From contig JBEKCB010000026.1 of the NCBI GenBank assembly GCA_050015075.1, positions 12,526 through 76,525 of the forward strand: a stretch of DNA of 64,000 nt. Direction: 5' to 3'. The DNA is from Candidatus Brocadiia bacterium (GTDB lineage: Bacteria > Planctomycetota > Brocadiia > CAIUPP01). Below are positions 4,925-56,063 of the stretch, piece by piece. A program made the position numbers and the translations under genes. The notes under the pieces are model-generated. The model was given only the letters and a program-made list of their open reading frames with translations. It was not told where the DNA came from and searched no databases. Positions within the stretch are counted from its first letter, which is position 1; each line of letters begins with the position of its first letter.

Positions 4925-4976
4925 AGTTGTGTATGGTGTCACCAGAATTCCTGGGACACCATTATGTCCCAGGAAT
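4925..4976. repeat. Cluster of three RAYT-type REP-like repeats (one full, two partial)
   Basis: agttgtgtatggtgtcaccagaatt, aattcctgggacaccat, tgtcccaggaat; same family as the repeats around 54453-55118. Confidence 0.75.
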
Positions 4977-5333
4977 GCTCTTCAACTCAGTTCTCCCGTC
5001 GCCGTATAAGTAATAGTACTCGTGCTTCCCTAAAGGCGTGTCATACGGGCGCACAATCAATAGAACTTGGGCGCGTTTGCCAAAGCTTGATGGCTCGTAA
5101 AGCATTACCCAGCCAATCTTCGAGAACTTCGTTTCGACGTCAGATCTTGAACTACTCTCACCGAGTTCATGCGTTACCACCTGCGCTTGTTCCCGGAACT
5201 CGGCATATTGCTCGGCACGTCTTGCGATAGCACGACTAATAGTCTGTTCGTGCACCAGCCAGATAAACCAAATGCCAACACAACCCGCGGCTAGCACCGC
5301 GAGGATTCGTGGGGCCATTTCTCTCAAGTGCAT
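4962..5333 (-). CDS. Hypothetical membrane-anchored cassette protein; its stop codon lies inside a REP-like repeat
   Basis: N-terminal TM (ILAVLAAGCVGIWFIWLV); ends ...KSIPGT* within attcctgggacataa; AT-richer than flanks. Confidence 0.55.
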   Translation of the reverse strand: MHLREMAPRILAVLAAGCVGIWFIWLVHEQTISRAIARRAEQYAEFREQAQVVTHELGESSSRSDVETKFSKIGWVMLYEPSSFGKRAQVLLIVRPYDTPLGKHEYYYLYGDGRTELKSIPGT

Positions 5334-5372
5334 TAGTTTCCAATCAAGGCAGGACGGTATGCATCCGCCGGC

Positions 5373-5442
5373 ATTCCTGGGACGCCATACATAACTAATG
5401 CTGCCGATGGTGCGAATCGTTATGTATGGCATCCCCGGAACT
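5373..5442. repeat. Inverted pair of RAYT-type REP-like repeats
   Basis: attcctgggacgccatacataact (5373-5396) and gttatgtatggcatccccggaact (5419-5442). Confidence 0.8.
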
Positions 5443-12379: not shown

Positions 12380-13816
12380 CTACTTCCAGGTCTCTTCCGC
12401 CGGCGGAGTCTTTTCCCCATTCGGCCCGGGCGGAAGATTGTCGCGGTATTTCTTCCACATCTCGTTGACGAACGGATACCACGTCGCTCGTTGCAGCTGC
12501 CAATCTGCGGAGAAGTCCCATCCCGTCTGATCTTTGATCTGCTTGACGAATGCCGTGTCGTCCTCCGTCATCCAGCGATCCTCATAGGCAAAGAACGCGT
12601 CATGGTCCCAGTCTTTCTCAGCGTGCATAATCCTGGCCGCAAGAGCCTCGGCCACCCAGGCATTGCCGTTCAAACGACGGTAACTCTCGTTCATCTGGCT
12701 CGCCCACTCTTTCGGCGGGAGATGCTCGTACTGGCCCCAGCCCGGATCGGTCTTATTGATATCCTCGCCGTTCCGGTCAACGCCCTGATGCCCGGCGTAG
12801 ACCACCTTCGCTCCGGTCCAGGAGCGCTTGAACAGAGTCTGCATGTCCTCCCCGAACTGCACGTTGGGATAGGTCTTAGTGGGCGAGGCCATTTCGTCAT
12901 CGCCCAGCATCATCCCGGCGAACACGATCGGCCATTTCCGGCCCGATCCATGCCCGCCATGCGCCTGCCAGCCGTGGAAGCCGGCTCTCACGATGCCCCA
13001 AAGGTCAATCCCGTTCTGCACAAGACCGATCAGGAGCCTCTCCTTTTTCTCCGGCGGCAAATCCGTCATCAATGCCAGGCTGGCGACTCCGGGCGCTTCG
13101 GCCATTTCCCGTCCGTACTGCGGTTGATATTCCACGGGCGCGTCGAAGGAAAAGAATACCAGGTTGAACCAGACGCGGTTGTAGTGATCCGCCAGTTCGT
13201 CTGCCGAAATCGAGACGCCTAAGTCCAGGTCGAACGTATCTCGGCCATAAGGCAGATTCGGCAGGAGATTCCGCTTGAGGTTCCTGGCCAGGTAGGTCTT
13301 CTGCGACCGATCGCAGTACGAGGGACGGAAGGCATCCGCGGGCTGGGCGGCAGCCACACAGGTGAGCACACAGGCGCTTTTCACGGGGCACGGCGTAATG
13401 ACGCTCTTTCGAAGCCAGCGATGAAAGGCCTTGTTGTATTCCTCGTCGGTGACGCTGATGGTGGACATGAGCGCATCGCCGGGCTTCATCTGGATCGGCA
13501 ACGGCGTGCACATCTTGGCGTCGTAACGGTGTCCCTCCTCGCGGCTGTCATAGCCGCTGTGATTTTCATCCAGCGGCGGATTCACTTCGCATCCATTCCG
13601 GCCGTTCCCGGGCGGAGGCGTGATGGAGACGACTTCGCAATTCCCCACAACATAATAGTCGCCGTTTACGAACTGACCGACTTCGGCCGGTTTACTTAAC
13701 TTCCAAGTGATCCCGTATTGCGTGATGGTATCGGTTTTCACAGTAGGACCGCTCTCTGCGCATGCAGACAAGAGAACGAGAATAGCCGCCATGCAAACGC
13801 TCTTGCACACGTACAT
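12380..13816 (-). CDS. Uncharacterised secreted protein, possible lipoprotein, paralog 2 of 3
   Basis: LLSAC lipobox; ITQYGITW, GGHGSGRKWPIVFAG, WDHDAFFAYEDRWM. Confidence 0.85.
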   Translation of the reverse strand: MYVCKSVCMAAILVLLSACAESGPTVKTDTITQYGITWKLSKPAEVGQFVNGDYYVVGNCEVVSITPPPGNGRNGCEVNPPLDENHSGYDSREEGHRYDAKMCTPLPIQMKPGDALMSTISVTDEEYNKAFHRWLRKSVITPCPVKSACVLTCVAAAQPADAFRPSYCDRSQKTYLARNLKRNLLPNLPYGRDTFDLDLGVSISADELADHYNRVWFNLVFFSFDAPVEYQPQYGREMAEAPGVASLALMTDLPPEKKERLLIGLVQNGIDLWGIVRAGFHGWQAHGGHGSGRKWPIVFAGMMLGDDEMASPTKTYPNVQFGEDMQTLFKRSWTGAKVVYAGHQGVDRNGEDINKTDPGWGQYEHLPPKEWASQMNESYRRLNGNAWVAEALAARIMHAEKDWDHDAFFAYEDRWMTEDDTAFVKQIKDQTGWDFSADWQLQRATWYPFVNEMWKKYRDNLPPGPNGEKTPPAEETWK

Positions 13817-50458: not shown

Positions 50459-50499
50459 AATGACCGCTCCGGGCATTGCATCGCGCCGGAGCGGTCATT
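50459..50499. terminator. Hairpin between convergent genes
   Basis: 14-bp stem aatgaccgctccgg / ccggagcggtcatt. Confidence 0.7.
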
Positions 50500-50546
50500 C
50501 CGTTCCCGCGATGCGGGAACGGCGCGCTATAATTGGGTTCGCTGGA

Positions 50547-50756
50547 TTATGACGTAGCCTTGACGACGTTCGCCGCGCGGGGGCCTTTCTCGCCTTTTTC
50601 GACATCGAAGGTGACGATGTCGTTCTCCGCCAAGCTCTTGAAGCCGCTTCCCTGGATTGCGGAATGATGGACGAACACGTCCGGCGTGCCGTCATCCGGG
50701 GTAATGAAGCCGTACCCCTTCTGATCGCTGAACCACTTCACCTTGCCCTGGGCCAT
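50547..50756 (-). CDS. Cold-shock protein (Csp family)
   Basis: GKVKWF, KGYGFI (RNP1), DVFVH (RNP2), KGPRAANV. Confidence 0.97.
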
Positions 50757-51038
50757 ACCGGCTTCCTCACAACCAAACGGGGCGGCGCGAACCCCGCAAA
50801 CGGCGGGCCGCCACACTGGGGCCCCGCTTCCGTCATCGGGTCAATCCGCCGTCCGCTGCCGCCCTTGCGCGGCGGCATTTCGTATAACGGCGCCGAGTAT
50901 ACTTTTCGCTATAACCCCAGTCAAGGAATTTCCGATGGCCGATTTGCTTGCGGCTTGAACGATCTGTCGGATTCTGGTACAGTCGCACCGCTGGATGGAC
51001 GCGCAATGCGGATTCCTTCAAGCCCACTGGAGGGAGCG

Positions 51039-52442: not shown

Positions 52443-52544
52443 GCAGGCGACCGATGCGCCTTCGCCGTTCTTTCACCCCGTAGCTTCCATCTCGTGTCGC
52501 CCCCAACCACACGCGGCGCCTACGCCCGCCGACGGACGAAACGA

Positions 52545-52682
52545 AATTGGAGAGCCTTCGGGCGCACAAGCGGACCGGCCGGCCGCTGGGAGACGAGCGG
52601 TTCATCGCAAAGCTGGAAGGACTCGCCGGCCCTCTCCTGCACAGGCAAAAATCCGGACCCAAGAGTCCGGGTAAGGAAATAG
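52545..52682 (+). pseudogene. 3' fragment of a second RAYT transposase copy
   Basis: LESLRAHKRTGRPLGDERFIAKLE; DNA match to 54982-55118 continuing into the REP-like repeat. Confidence 0.85.
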
Positions 52683-52704
52683 TTATGTATGGTGTCCCCG
52701 GAAC
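52681..52704 (+). repeat. RAYT-type REP-like repeat
   Basis: agttatgtatggtgtccccggaac, identical to 55117-55140. Confidence 0.9.
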
Positions 52705-52716
52705 CCTGCAGGAGAC

Positions 52717-53100
52717 GTGGTGGTGGGAGGAGAGGAAGTCGGGGTAAGCGTACTCGAAGTGGTAGCCGCCGCTCTCGGAATATCCGTTGGCGCTTTATTG
52801 GCCATTCTCGTTTTGGGCGGGATAGCGGCTTACCTACTGTGGAGGCTAATCAGAAAGTGGTCAAGAAAGGCCCGCTGTCTCCCGTGTCAACCTCCTGTTG
52901 GCACTATCGCGTATCGCGTTGATTGTGATGGAAGAGCGCATGCCGGTATTCCGACGCCGCATTCACATGCGTATGAAATGCAGCAGAGCCCTCCATCATT
53001 TGGTTGCGTTTGCTTTTGGCACCCCACGGGCGTAACGTTGCCGGGGGTTGTTGGCCCACCGATTCTGCCAGCGGGTGGCGGCGGAGTTGTATTTGATTAG
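52717..53100 (+). CDS. Headless polymorphic-toxin (Rhs-type) C-terminal fragment
   Basis: Hydrophobic segment then CLPCQPPVGTIAYRVD...H...HSH.YEMQQSP...GCVCFW; frame stays open back into the repeat; family recalled, not searched. Confidence 0.55.
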   Translation: MVVGGEEVGVSVLEVVAAALGISVGALLAILVLGGIAAYLLWRLIRKWSRKARCLPCQPPVGTIAYRVDCDGRAHAGIPTPHSHAYEMQQSPPSFGCVCFWHPTGVTLPGVVGPPILPAGGGGVVFD

Positions 53101-53103
53101 GAC

Positions 53104-53373
53104 ATGGCCGAGGTGCTGAACGAGAAATATGCAGGGTCATCGGAACTGATCAAAAAGGGAGACTGGATTTACCTGGAAGGTGAAGAATGGGGCGGACAAG
53201 TCAAGGAGGTGTGTTTGCCCCATACCGAATTGGCCCGAGCTTACAACTGCGAGGAGACAGGCGGAATACTCGTTCTTTTCGATGATGGTATTTTAGCACT
53301 GCTGGATTTCGGTTCCGATCATTGCATCAAACGCCGTCGTGCCGGAAGTTCCGGGGACACCATACGTAATTAG
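53104..53373 (+). CDS. Probable immunity protein; C-terminus and stop supplied by the REP-like repeat
   Basis: Starts 3 bp after the toxin-fragment stop; ends ...GSSGDTIRN* in agttccggggacaccatacgtaattag. Confidence 0.55.
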   Translation: MAEVLNEKYAGSSELIKKGDWIYLEGEEWGGQVKEVCLPHTELARAYNCEETGGILVLFDDGILALLDFGSDHCIKRRRAGSSGDTIRN

Positions 53374-53405
53374 GAGAATGAGTTACGTATGGTGTCCCCG
53401 GAACT
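53347..53405. repeat. Inverted pair of REP-like repeats
   Basis: agttccggggacaccatacgtaatt - 9 bp - agttacgtatggtgtccccggaact. Confidence 0.9.
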
Positions 53406-53568
53406 CGAACAAACTCCCGGTGTGAACGGACAGAATTATCGGCCAAGATGGTCTACGCAATTCCCGCAAGTGAATACACCTCAGATTCCCCCGAGGTTTG
53501 GCAAGTTCTATGTTGCGCCGGGTATCGGGCCGGTTCGGTAGGCCTAAAGTGTGTCAAGGAGGGGTCAA

Positions 53569-54210
53569 ATGAATCGGTTGGGATTTCTATTACTACGGTA
53601 TATTCCGGTCACAATTATGGCACTGTTGTGCGCAGGTTGTGTTTCAACCTCTAATATGCCTCACGGTGAACACTCTCACGGACCTCTGAAGCGGCGCGTC
53701 TTAGGCGATGAATCAGACGTTTCCCAAAGGCACTGGGAAGTTAGGTCGGACTTGGACTGCGAGACCATCGGAAGGTGGGAGGCGCTGGTGCGGAAGATGG
53801 CTGTCGAGCATTACGAAGAGATTCGCACCAATGTGTTGGAGTTGGGCAACGGAGCACTTACGTTTCAGAAGTTCATTGTGTGCGAATGGAAGCCAAGCGG
53901 AGACAGGGTGCTTTGTGTTGGGCAAACGTTTTACTGGACAATCGTCTGCTTGCTAGGCAAACGCGATGGTAGTTGGACGTGTGATGATGGAAGGTTCTAT
54001 TCATCCCGTGCAGGAAGCTTTGGGTTGGCGTTCATCGATGCAGGTGATCGCGGAGAAGACGACGAGGATCGCGGTGAGGAAGACATTGTCCTTCGCATTA
54101 CAAATCACCCCGGAACGGACATGTGGGTTTCAACGCTACATATTGTGAGAATGGAGAATGGGGCGCTTATAGAGTTGCTCAATTCCGCTCTGGATACTGT
54201 GGACAAGTGA
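53569..54210 (+). CDS. Hypothetical lipoprotein (cassette gene)
   Basis: AGGAGG RBS; LLCAGC lipobox-like signal; AT-richer than host genes. Confidence 0.65.
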   Translation: MNRLGFLLLRYIPVTIMALLCAGCVSTSNMPHGEHSHGPLKRRVLGDESDVSQRHWEVRSDLDCETIGRWEALVRKMAVEHYEEIRTNVLELGNGALTFQKFIVCEWKPSGDRVLCVGQTFYWTIVCLLGKRDGSWTCDDGRFYSSRAGSFGLAFIDAGDRGEDDEDRGEEDIVLRITNHPGTDMWVSTLHIVRMENGALIELLNSALDTVDK

Positions 54211-54296
54211 ATCGAAAATAGGGACAGGAAAATAGGGTATTCCGGCGGAGATAAACCGTATTTCCTGGGTTAGGGATCGCGATCGGGAACGGGATC

Positions 54297-54415
54297 GGGA
54301 CGCCATAGGTAATTATTGACTCGGGCTTGCCAGGGATTATCAGGTTGCTGCTGCTATTATGAAACGGTCGCGGGCGTTGATCAGTAGGATAGTTCCGGGG
54401 ACACCATACATAAGT
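54297..54415 (-). repeat. Two REP-like repeats upstream of RAYT
   Basis: gggacgccataggtaatt (54297-54314) and agttccggggacaccatacataagt (54391-54415). Confidence 0.8.
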
Positions 54416-54452
54416 ATTGAGAGGGGCGGCGGCATTGTGATAGGGTGCAGTC

Positions 54453-55118
54453 ATGGCTCGATTGGCGCGCGTAGTGATTGCCGGCGTACCGCACCATCTG
54501 ACGCAGAGAGGGAACCGGCGTCAGAAGGTGTTCTTCAGCGCGGAGGACCCTGCGGCGTACCTGGAACTGCTGCGGCAGTGGTGCGCGGAACGCAGCGTCG
54601 AGGTCTGGGCCTACTGCTTGATGCCGAACCACGTTCACCTGATTGTGCTCCCGGAGAGCGAAGACGGTCTGCGTCGGGCTGTGGGCGAGGCGCACCGGCG
54701 ACACACTCGAATGATCAACTTCCGCGAAGGCTGGCGCGGGCACCTCTGGCAAGGACGATTCGCGTCGTACCCGATGGACGAGACGCATCTGATGGCGGCG
54801 GCGCGGTACATCGAGCGGAATCCGGTGCGCGCGCGGCTGGTCCGCAGGGCATGGGACTACCGCTGGTCGAGCGCGAAGGCGCATGTCGAGGGGCGCGATG
54901 ACGCGGTGGCGAAGGTGAAGCCGCTGCTGGAACGGATGGAGGACTGGAAGGAATTCCTGCGCCTGCCGGAGGATGAAAGGCAATTGGAGAGCCTTCGGGC
55001 GCACGAGCGGACCGGACGGCCGCTGGGAGACGAGCGGTTCATCGCAAGGCTGGAACGGCTCGCTGGCCTTCTCCTGCACAGGCAGAAACCCGGAGCGAGG
55101 GGGCCGGGAAAGGAATAG
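54453..55118 (+). mobile_element. REP-associated tyrosine transposase (RAYT; Y1 HUH, IS200-like fold)
   Basis: HHLTQRGNRRQ, YCLMPNHVHLI (HUH), LWQGRF, RYIERNPVRA (catalytic Tyr), YRWSSA. Confidence 0.92.
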
Positions 55119-55161
55119 TTATGTATGGTGTCCCCGGAACCCACGGGGACACCCATAACCG
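55117..55161. repeat. REP-like repeat plus partial inverted copy at RAYT 3' end
   Basis: agttatgtatggtgtccccggaac overlaps the stop codon; cggggacaccc follows at 55145. Confidence 0.85.
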
Positions 55162-55236
55162 TCTTCAAGTCATGAGGGGTCCGTAGCCGAACCCGTTCAT
55201 CCTAAAGGCGCCGTTCGTGTGCCTGTCAGGCACCCA

Positions 55237-55262
55237 TCTGCCTTCGCTGAAGCTACGGCAGA
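55237..55262. repeat. Short palindromic element
   Basis: tctgccttcgctgaagctacggcaga hairpin in intergenic DNA. Confidence 0.45.
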
Positions 55263-55642
55263 CAGGTTCGCACCGCCTCCGAATTCCATCCTCGGACCGT
55301 GCATGATTCTCGTCGCGCGGCGTCAGCCCAATCATAAACGCGGCGCATCCGGTCCGGCTTTCGCAGGACCGCTCGCCAGTCCTCGGGATCGGGCCTCGGA
55401 CGCCGCCATGGGCACGCGATCTATCTTTGCTTACGCGACGGCTTGCGCGCGATTGGGTTCGTTTTTTCAGATGGATTTGTCGAGCCAGGCGCTCCTTCAG
55501 CGGACGCTACGCGAGGGCGTCAAGAGAGAGGGCATTTGGTCGGCATGCAAGGACCACTCGACATCATTCCGGCCCGTCACGGGGTCGTCACGGTGTCATT
55601 GCGACGGCATGAAAGCGGCATGAATATCATGAATAGTCTGAT

Positions 55643-55658
55643 TGTTCCACGTGGAACA
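55643..55658. promoter_or_regulatory. parS site (ParB binding)
   Basis: TGTTCCACGTGGAACA fits the TGTTNCACGTGNAACA consensus; palindrome extends to 55641-55660. Confidence 0.85.
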
Positions 55659-56063
55659 ATTTAGAAAACATCTTATCGTCCTGCGGGCGCAATCGTTTCA
55701 GGAGTACGGAATCGAGGCGCAATCGGTCGGGCAGGGATCAGCCAACACAGCATCGTAACCGCGCGCGCCAAACTGCGATGGCACTGTATCACAATCGGAC
55801 GATACTAACCGAAAACGCCGGCTCTTTCCGGTTTTTCGGTGTTGCAAATGGGGCCGCATCTCGATGATACTGACCCAGGTCTGAGGGCCATCTTGACTTT
55901 ATAAGTCGTTGCCATTCAGTCGCTTGTGGCTATGCCCAGCAACTGGGTGCGCTGGGTGCATCCCTATCCCGCCTGCTACATCGTTGCACGTCGAAATCCA
56001 ACGGCACAGTCTTTGCTTTTTCTAAGTCAGCCACCAGGCATATTCTCAGGAGGAAGAAGAGTC

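Follow-up and report, generated by a model that had tools for sequence, protein, structure and literature searches.

How does the C-terminal toxin tip of an Rhs protein, together with its immunity gene and without any Rhs core, come to lie between the ends of a small transposon? The question is raised by a 64-kb stretch of the genome of a Candidatus Brocadiia bacterium, referred to here as the window (positions 12526–76525 of contig C26). The source genome, G000, is a draft of 4.64 Mb in 66 contigs with a GC content of 64.7% and an estimated contamination of 3.8%; coordinates below are window positions unless a contig is named. A preliminary description of this DNA had reported a Y1-HUH transposase of the RAYT type surrounded by REP repeats that bracket cassettes of clipped toxin/immunity-type genes, and had proposed an integron-like capture array. 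That observation is confirmed in part: the repeats, the transposase and the low-GC segments are present, whereas the clipped gene claimed for the second segment is not supported. The repeats prove to be the 24-bp terminal inverted repeats (TIRs) of a transposon known as a TIRtron. The reading we favor, with confidence slightly short of even, is that the locus consists of passenger DNA delimited, and probably moved or brought in, by TIRtron units, which show a recurrent minority association with Rhs arrays. The features on which this reading draws are as follows.

52519..52678, + strand: 5′-truncated second copy of the transposase gene, its last ~53 codons (160 nucleotides (nt), 86% identical to 54956–55115)
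52681..52704, + strand: right TIR of the truncated unit (matching the consensus with 0 mismatches), with the toxin tip directly next to its GGAAC end
52675..53100, + strand: orphan C-terminal toxin tip of an Rhs protein, lacking the Rhs core, in a frame that stays open across the TIR
53104..53373, + strand: cognate immunity gene; the native part ends near 53340, and a TIR supplies the last ~10 codons and the stop
53347..53405, no strand: gene-less TIR doublet made of a left TIR (53348–53371, −), 13 nt and a right TIR (53381–53404, +)
53405..53541, + strand: open frame of 46 codons leading out of the TIR, unverified as part of a gene
53569..54210, + strand: orphan lipoprotein gene with lipobox LCAGC and a strong AGGAGG upstream
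54290..54315, − strand: decayed left TIR, 69% identical to the 26-nt reference, with the end motif reiterated just upstream
54392..54415, − strand: left TIR of the complete unit (1 mismatch)
54453..55118, + strand: intact gene for a Y1-HUH transposase; the product (221 amino acids) is of the TIRYT type and contains the motifs NHVH and YIERNP
55117..55140, + strand: right TIR of the complete unit (0 mismatches)
55134..55160, no strand: partial repeat copy, an inverted partial arm beside the right TIR

The locus thus reads as truncated unit, segment 1, gene-less doublet, segment 2, decayed TIR and complete unit, all in direct orientation. Both segments are AT-richer than their surroundings, as had been described: the GC content is 0.547 in segment 1 (52705–53346) and 0.513 in segment 2 (53406–54290), compared with 0.659 in the transposase gene and 0.647 in the genome. 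The repeat consensus, AGTTAYGTATGGTGTCCCCGGAAC, matches the window seven times with at most 3 mismatches, and 0 matches are expected from 100 shuffles. Five of these matches fall inside the locus along with two further partial copies, which agrees with the earlier count of at least seven full or partial repeats. Genome-wide, the 18-nt core of the repeat has 20 matches with at most 3 mismatches; all five exact ones are at the locus.

To what kind of element do these repeats belong? The transposase matches PF01797 (E = 4e-14) and aligns with E. coli TnpA-REP (PDB 4er8; E = 1e-3) at both the HUH (pnHvHli) and Tyr (rYiernP) motifs, which upholds the call of an intact Y1-HUH enzyme; its score against NF047646 (REP_Tyr_transpos) is 73.1 bits, under the cut-off of 80. 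We collected the loci of the best 80 of its 498 relatives (L001–L080), which are 56–66% identical and come from many phyla. With a TIR-like match defined by at most 3 mismatches in 18 nt, 63 of the 80 loci carry the same TIR ~60 bp upstream (−) and 20–40 bp downstream (+) of the transposase gene, with the GGAAC ends outward. The single TIR at 52681–52704 does not fold alone in a folding computation. Because relatives share this flanking layout and single copies do not fold, the repeat is a terminal inverted repeat and not the REP it had been taken for, and its GGAAC end points away from the transposase gene. A self-folding REP hairpin was rejected as a description of the TIR: its own complement lies within 45 nt in 0 of 128 copies, with one imperfect hairpin seen by eye in L026.

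Judged by its sequence, the element is a TIRtron, a known kind of transposon, and not a classical REP/RAYT system. TIRtrons and their TIRYT transposases were described by Di Nocera et al. (2013), whose account of them gives the TIR consensus GGGGWSAS (PMC3733652). In the passages of Quentin et al. (2018) that classify the TnpA-Y1 family, TIRYTs form subclass 2.1 and class 2 has the Tyr signature Y---NP (PMC6006769). The TIR of the window, GTTCCGGGGACACC, contains GGGGACAC, which fits the TIRYT consensus. As in TIRtrons, the Y1-HUH enzyme is homologous to TnpA-REP but longer and is flanked by TIRs instead of self-folding REPs, and copies of the TIR are found singly, as dimers and in groups, in low to moderate numbers. 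TIRYTs have a C-terminal extension with a helix-turn-helix (HTH) resembling Bac_DnaA_C, HTH_23 or HTH_28; the enzyme in the window has 221 amino acids compared with 165 in E. coli TnpA-REP and its extension is conserved in relatives, with no Pfam HTH detected at E 0.1. What separates the locus from TIRtrons as characterized in the descriptive parts of PMC3733652 and PMC6006769 is the passenger DNA between units and the fusion of TIRs to clipped genes. The term Rhs occurs 0 times in the main text (supplements excluded) of each of these papers.

The likeness to RAYT/REPIN systems that had suggested the earlier label is real. As outlined in the pertinent sections of PMC5581495 and of Bertels and Rainey (2011), such systems combine a single-copy-type Y1 transposase with flanking repeats that are spread through the genome, and the inverted doublet, or REPIN, is their non-autonomous unit (PMC5581495, same sections). 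The locus differs in that its single repeat is non-palindromic and lacks a GTAG head, and in that the genome has 20 copies in 4.64 Mb compared with hundreds in such systems. Abundant, palindromic REPs with a GTAG head, which characterize RAYTs in the strict sense (REPtrons), are not found here. Elements of the IS200/IS605 group have subterminal hairpins on one strand at both of their ends and no TIRs, whereas TIRs are present at the locus, and NF033573 yields 19.7 bits against a cut-off of 55. That the TIR sequence is common to several phyla suggests horizontal spread.

Directly left of the first repeat lies the transposase 3′ copy (52519–52678), which was absent from the preliminary description. 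Aligned by tblastn, it is 77% identical in amino acids to residues 169–221 of the transposase, and on the strength of this match we interpret it as what is left of a second TIRtron unit, lying in direct orientation. The arms of the complete unit (54392–54418 and 55114–55140) form a 27-nt inverted repeat that is 96% complementary. The doublet is an inverted repeat of 23 nt, 100% complementary, whose single-stranded DNA folds at −27.9 kcal/mol (z −9.3); it is a derivative of the TIRtron unit that resembles a REPIN or a miniature inverted-repeat transposable element. The right TIR of the complete unit and the partial inverted arm at 55144–55160 form a compact hairpin (−15.5 kcal/mol, z −4.05). 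Since the repeats are TIRtron ends, what had been called cassettes is DNA between complete, truncated or gene-less copies of the unit. A further property of the TIRs concerns their terminal 6-mer (CGGAAY or a local variant): in 46 of 124 copies it recurs in tandem in the 30 nt just beyond the TIR, compared with 2 of 124 and 1 of 124 control windows; this reiterated 6-mer may be a target or cleavage motif, or the footprint of repeated insertion.

What lies in segment 1? Homology identifies it as a genuine orphan Rhs tip/immunity module whose immunity function is predicted. The tip comprises a hydrophobic helix and a Cys/His-rich domain of ~75 amino acids, and its first possible starts are GTG codons at 52717, 52720 and 52723, after an AGGAG. 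A phmmer search of 1.84 billion representative proteins returned 183 proteins at E ≤ 1e-3, the best of them C-termini of Rhs/YD proteins. Among the 149 non-self matches listed, 99 end within 5 residues of the C-terminus and 101 are at least 200 amino acids long. RHS_repeat and TIGR03696 were detected in the tip-bearing L092, L093, P0004 and P0105. The tip is 53% identical to P0003 over residues 2–138. The junction RNPAGDVVVGG of the window aligns with DPDG/RNPAVIVVGGG in P0014 (the slash marks the core end), so that homology starts right after the DPxG end of the core; in the alignment with P0003 it starts ~9 codons before the DPxG-end position, and the DPxG motif itself is absent from the window. 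The tip is weakly Ntox24-like (20 bits, under the cut-off of 24). Its AlphaFold model has a mean pLDDT of 71, and a Foldseek comparison of the fold with PDB found no match at E ≤ 0.001 (best 1.4). Upstream of the tip there is no Rhs core, and the transposase fragment and TIR stand there instead; the only Rhs core of G000 sits on contig C48, far from the locus.

The immunity family is ~80 amino acids long, and its six homologues (78–83 amino acids) are 57–84% identical. By this comparison, the gene in the window is complete save for ~2 codons and the stop, which are replaced by the next TIR; the claim that a repeat clips the 3′ end of the first segment's gene is therefore correct. We rejected the alternative that the immunity gene and the 46-codon frame, which share a reading frame, are one gene split by the 57-nt doublet, since 6 of 6 homologues are 78–83 amino acids long and end where the gene meets the TIR. 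On two metagenome contigs, L092 and L093, the same tip and immunity gene lie colinear behind complete Rhs cores in low-GC DNA with a gap of ~30 bp or less. The pair in the window shares 74% and 71% nucleotide identity with them, and no DNA resembling segment 2 occurs downstream of the pair in either contig. Because tip and immunity gene stand behind full Rhs cores in L092 and L093, segment 1 is a module trimmed flush at both ends.

Segment 2 did not live up to the earlier claims that both segments open mid-gene and derive from toxin-tip/immunity junctions; both hold for segment 1, by its matches to Rhs/YD C-termini, and neither is verified for segment 2. Its 46-codon frame has no homologue among longer proteins in a search that is weak with so short a query, and a frame of this kind arises by chance with P ~0.24 in composition-matched shuffles, so its mid-gene opening is unverified. 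The proposal that the frame is the end of a toxin was dropped on the same search, with the same weakness. The lipoprotein that follows matches only itself among 5.8 billion proteins and belongs to no Pfam or NCBIfam family; its Atlas scores are at most 0.89 and its structural TM values at most 0.53.

Has the DNA between the repeats always been there? In G001, which belongs to the same genus, the flanks are 94% and 87% identical, and between window positions 52449 and 55762 there is a different insert of 1.7 kb (GC 0.514) that begins with a diverged TIR copy and contains no transposase. The same slot in G002, of the same family, holds ordinary high-GC DNA with no island and no TIR. No trace of an Rhs core was found at this site in G000, G001 or G002. 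As had been claimed, the repeats do bound lower-GC DNA, and this DNA is lineage-specific, since the sister species G001 lacks it; the expected gain or loss of cassettes exactly at repeats was not seen, in that G001 differs by the whole region and not by single cassettes. The TIR family has 20 matches in G000 and 13 in G001, none of the latter exact, and is at control level in G002 and G003. A flank with a GC content below 0.57 adjoins 12 of the 20 TIR-like matches in G000, compared with 9.8% of random positions. On contig C37, a TIR lies ~14 nt from the border between G001-shared and lineage-specific low-GC DNA, with the GGAAC end facing the specific DNA; on C9, a variable block holds TIR repeats but is not bounded by them.

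Other brackets were noted in the same genome. On contig C33 (52966–56672), TIR doublets at 52966/53009 and 56623/56656 bound a 3.6-kb block with a GC content of ~0.54 and no counterpart in G001; its four same-strand genes look by eye like secreted or lipoprotein-like, zinc-ribbon/membrane and FHA-like proteins. Contig C44 (9855–13111) carries a second TIRtron family with a transposase that is 45% identical and the TIR GTATTATGTCCCGGGAATAC, of which all five exact copies are there. This bracket begins with a full unit and continues with 2 kb of DNA of lower GC content, in which there is a 612-amino-acid open reading frame (ORF); it ends with a unit truncated by a TIR fused at transposase codon ~90.

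Do TIRs meet Rhs genes in other bacteria? Rhs cores were found by tblastn in 4 of the 80 transposase loci (L024, L025, L029 and L035), those of L025 and L029 being confirmed with TIGR03696. In L024, L025, L029 and L107, the outer end of a TIR is fused to a 5′-truncated Rhs gene reading away from it, and in L024 and L107 the truncated-Rhs modules are also bracketed by unit remnants. The order in L024 is unit, orphan Rhs gene with an inserted transposase gene, two TIRs and transposase remnant. In L107, which belongs to genome G031, a low-GC cassette of 1.63 kb, composed of a clipped Rhs gene and a downstream gene, lies between the two TIRs of a perfect pair; these TIRs are the ends of decayed units of which 7 nt and 72 nt of internal sequence are kept. 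The core piece in this cassette is 93–96% identical to four other G031 cores, and the homology stops 6 nt from the TIR. All three Rhs arrays of G031 carry TIRs, and two orphans beside TIRs of different subfamilies start at positions 13 and 15 of the 76-position Rhs_assc_core. When the G031 cassette was compared with 25 relatives, only the neighboring transporter gene was conserved. The bracket of unit, segment and unit occurs in L024, L107, L032 and on C44 of G000, and L032 repeats the layout of the window, with a transposase 3′ fragment and TIR, a segment and a full unit. On C48, the Rhs gene of G000 is followed by a putative immunity gene and then by a TIR-like arm.

A tally by hand in four genomes placed 19 of 63 TIR matches within 5 kb of an Rhs core, compared with at most ~1.5 expected, in genomes picked for already showing the link. 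These 19 matches correspond to 10 loci, 6 of them additional to the 4 index loci. A reversed control pattern gave 11 matches, so some of the 63 TIR matches are due to chance. Two accounts of the junctions were tried and set aside. Microhomology of CGGAAC with the RN codons fits the junction in the window, but not those in L024 or L107. The ATG of the TIR as a start for the Rhs fragments is in frame in L025 only, and 4 of 5 junctions use the frame VWCPRN, which is startless (P ~0.14).

The TIR ATG (GT ATG GTG TCC CC) may be seen from another side. In L001–L080, its frame counts 7 against 2 and 2 among outward ORFs of at least 200 codons, and 11 against 3 and 6 among those of at least 120 codons; in L012, a response-regulator gene seems to have its start provided by a TIR. 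As a separate matter, the orphan modules of L098 and L107 in G031 share a 140–170-nt 3′ end that is 88–95% identical between arrays and have the conserved core piece at their 5′ ends; the Rhs orphan modules of this genome therefore have defined repeat borders of their own.

How could such an arrangement have arisen? Under the reading we favor, a unit would have inserted into an Rhs gene of a donor or ancestor, or become joined to such a gene, at the tip boundary, and the module would then have travelled or integrated bracketed by units. Composite transposition, read-through of an end, or recombination of an incoming unit with a resident landing-pad unit could each have provided the route, and later decay would have truncated the left unit. 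The core/shell that an Rhs tip needs for encapsulation and delivery is absent at the tip in the window, which probably cannot be delivered today. The nearly intact immunity gene could still protect the cell against neighbors that fire this toxin family.

In part, the arrangement resembles a composite transposon, in that two direct-order copies of one element bracket passenger DNA and one of them is decayed. Both DDE elements and the rolling-circle HUH-Y2 group, which includes IS91 and ISCR, are known to integrate foreign DNA as composites or insertion sequences; to our knowledge, integration of passenger DNA in this manner is not known for Y1 enzymes. In part, it resembles classical Rhs orphans. 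Poole et al. in 2011 and Jackson et al. in 2009 reportedly described orphan Rhs-CT/immunity modules, as well as the process of C-terminal displacement at Rhs and CDI loci. Like these, the module in the window is a low-GC tip with its cognate immunity gene, detached from an Rhs gene of full length, and the orphans of L024 and L107 keep a short, highly conserved core piece. Classical orphans lie directly downstream of the main rhs gene and begin with core, whereas the module in the window is far from the only Rhs gene, on C48, is coreless and is cut flush by a transposon end. We found no report linking RAYT, TIRYT or IS200-type elements with Rhs; a paper that has both terms treats them separately.

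A number of observations, besides the choice of the tallied genomes, weigh against movement by TIRtron units. The window itself offers one verified clipped gene only, and the loss of ~2 codons from the immunity gene can result from ordinary insertion just behind it. The same cargo was not found in a second genomic context. Excision or alternative joints at TIRs were not seen in the contigs of four further sequencing runs, in which rare forms are lost because contigs and not reads were checked; 24 peat or wetland runs contain the stretch, and the junction evidence rests on these four. The Rhs link is a minority trait, at 4 of 80 loci, and no Rhs core was found within 1.5 kb of any of 23 loci in 13 other transposase-bearing genomes from a 200-genome sample of the window's phylum. 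ORFs of at least 100 codons abut the TIR at 21 of 111 ends in other genomes compared with 46% at random positions; the TIR family is normally extragenic elsewhere, which also tells against the earlier capture reading. A second transposase copy or fragment occurs near the first in 7 of the 80 loci, in direct orientation in 7 of 7. The strand bias of single-strand transposition, known from work on IS608, would lead to direct orientation as well, and direct brackets therefore need no composite movement. Finally, we know of no documented case of composite or one-ended transposition by a Y1 transposase.

Much of this evidence would be at home in an explanation by passive insertion and decay, which we consider the main competitor, although we incline away from it. 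In this account, a horizontally acquired islet of orphan Rhs remnant and lipoprotein gene would have reached a variable intergenic hot spot by some unrelated route. Local hops of TIRtron units and the doublet into and around it would have come later, and deletions beside the elements would have taken away the Rhs core together with half of one unit; the repeats would then show where insertion is tolerated, without any part in acquisition. The outward GGAAC ends of the canonical unit make the supposed cassettes simply inter-element DNA, the slot contains other mobile debris in the form of two further repeat families, and low-GC islands commonly collect insertion sequences, which would also account for the 12 of 20 low-GC flanks. 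The uniformly direct neighboring copies fit strand-biased local hopping, and the mostly extragenic TIR ends, the phylum sample devoid of Rhs cores and the missing excision joints point the same way. Passive insertion leaves as an unexplained coincidence that foreign DNA starts exactly at the outer end of a TIR in both G000 and G001, with different cargo. It also does not account for a first module that is flush at both ends, for the lack of any Rhs core trace at the site in all three genomes, for the recurrence in another phylum of a bracket around 5′-clipped Rhs modules, or for the enrichment of TIRs near Rhs cores beyond the index loci (6 loci against at most ~1.5 matches expected).

Could the TIRtron go further and be a dedicated vehicle? 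The transposase would then join the TIR end to Rhs genes at set positions, severing tip and immunity modules that are moved and integrated as arrays of unit, module and unit, both inside one genome and from one genome to another; the set positions may be where the Rhs-associated core begins or where core and tip meet. We regard this stronger proposal as unlikely. The same arrangement in a few other bacteria hints that TIRtrons may help to excise and reshuffle toxin modules, and the recurrent TIR–Rhs junctions lend some support to a possible active role of the HUH enzyme in acquiring DNA. If true, the proposal would supply an HUH-driven route to C-terminal displacement and to the acquisition of stand-alone immunity, somewhat like a primitive cassette system. 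New Rhs and polymorphic-toxin tips and stand-alone immunity genes are usually attributed to homologous recombination on the conserved core, and a vehicle is rarely identified. Descriptions to date treat TIRYTs and TIRtrons solely as an oddity among the Y1 transposases, for which neither cargo nor biological effect is known. If a physical link proved repeatable, with TIRs fused to clipped Rhs modules and modules bracketed by units in at least two phyla, TIRtrons would gain a role, and the cutting at GGAAY by the transposase and the joining of the end to Rhs junction DNA would become open to bench tests. If the link reflects insertion preference only, the locus is an ordinary decayed patch of mobile elements.

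The integron-like array of the preliminary description, in which TIR doublets would be the specific sites where the HUH enzyme puts cassettes in and takes them out, building an ordered toxin/immunity array, has little to recommend it and we think it very improbable. Short folded repeats separate promoter-less foreign segments, as in integron gene cassettes (attC/IntI), the doublet resembles attC sites in forming a strong hairpin, and the order doublet, cargo, doublet, seen here and at C33, fits a doublet circle recombining with a chromosomal doublet. Against this stand the absence at the locus of a tyrosine recombinase, an attI-like site and a common promoter, with promoters and terminators at chance level only, and the finding that the repeats are the ends of a transposon that is also found alone. 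The locus has two segments only, one of them with a toxin/immunity pair and a verified clipped gene, and the cargoes of C33 and C44 bear no toxin signature by eye, no family scan having been made. The ends of the L107 bracket are remnants of full units and not doublets, the genome contains only 20 TIR matches, and the contigs of the four runs contain no excised or empty forms. A chimera of low-GC DNA and repeats joined by metagenome mis-assembly or binning, which a 66-contig draft with 3.8% estimated contamination might invite given that repeats are typical break points, is scarcely credible, as two independent metagenome contigs (one of 76.9 kb) are 100% identical to the locus over 4,001 bp and contigs of the four further runs span every TIR junction with 0 differences.

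The locus lies between a gene for a sigma-54 activator on one side and a gene for a HAMP-type membrane protein, followed by leuS, on the other. No tRNA was found as an integration site, and the sole Rfam match is a sub-threshold cspA element. This match to the cspA thermoregulator RNA (50496–50815, − strand; 49 bits against a gathering threshold of 78, E = 2e-10) is located upstream of a gene encoding a cold-shock protein.

Two other repeat families occupy the slot to the right of the complete unit. Positions 55144–55418 are a remnant of ~275 bp that starts with the TIR-like arm CGGGGACACCCATAAC and has copies on contigs C7, C8 and C48 (77–86% identical by blastn). The C48 copy adjoins the 3′ end of a transposase gene, past the genome's only Rhs gene and the putative immunity gene; from its translation, and not from a family scan, we take this transposase to be IS110-like. 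The 275-bp repeat may be an insertion sequence that targets the TIR. Positions 55445–55688 belong to a second family of ~240 bp with the palindrome ATTGTTCCACGTGGAACAAT and no Rfam match; at least eight copies occur in G000 (on C2, C6, C24, C31, C37 and others) and several in G001, 72–84% identical. Elsewhere in the window, at 4931–5441 (C26:17456–17966), diverged TIRs in the form of one compact hairpin and one doublet flank a gene for a membrane protein of ~120 amino acids, with a GC content of ~0.51.

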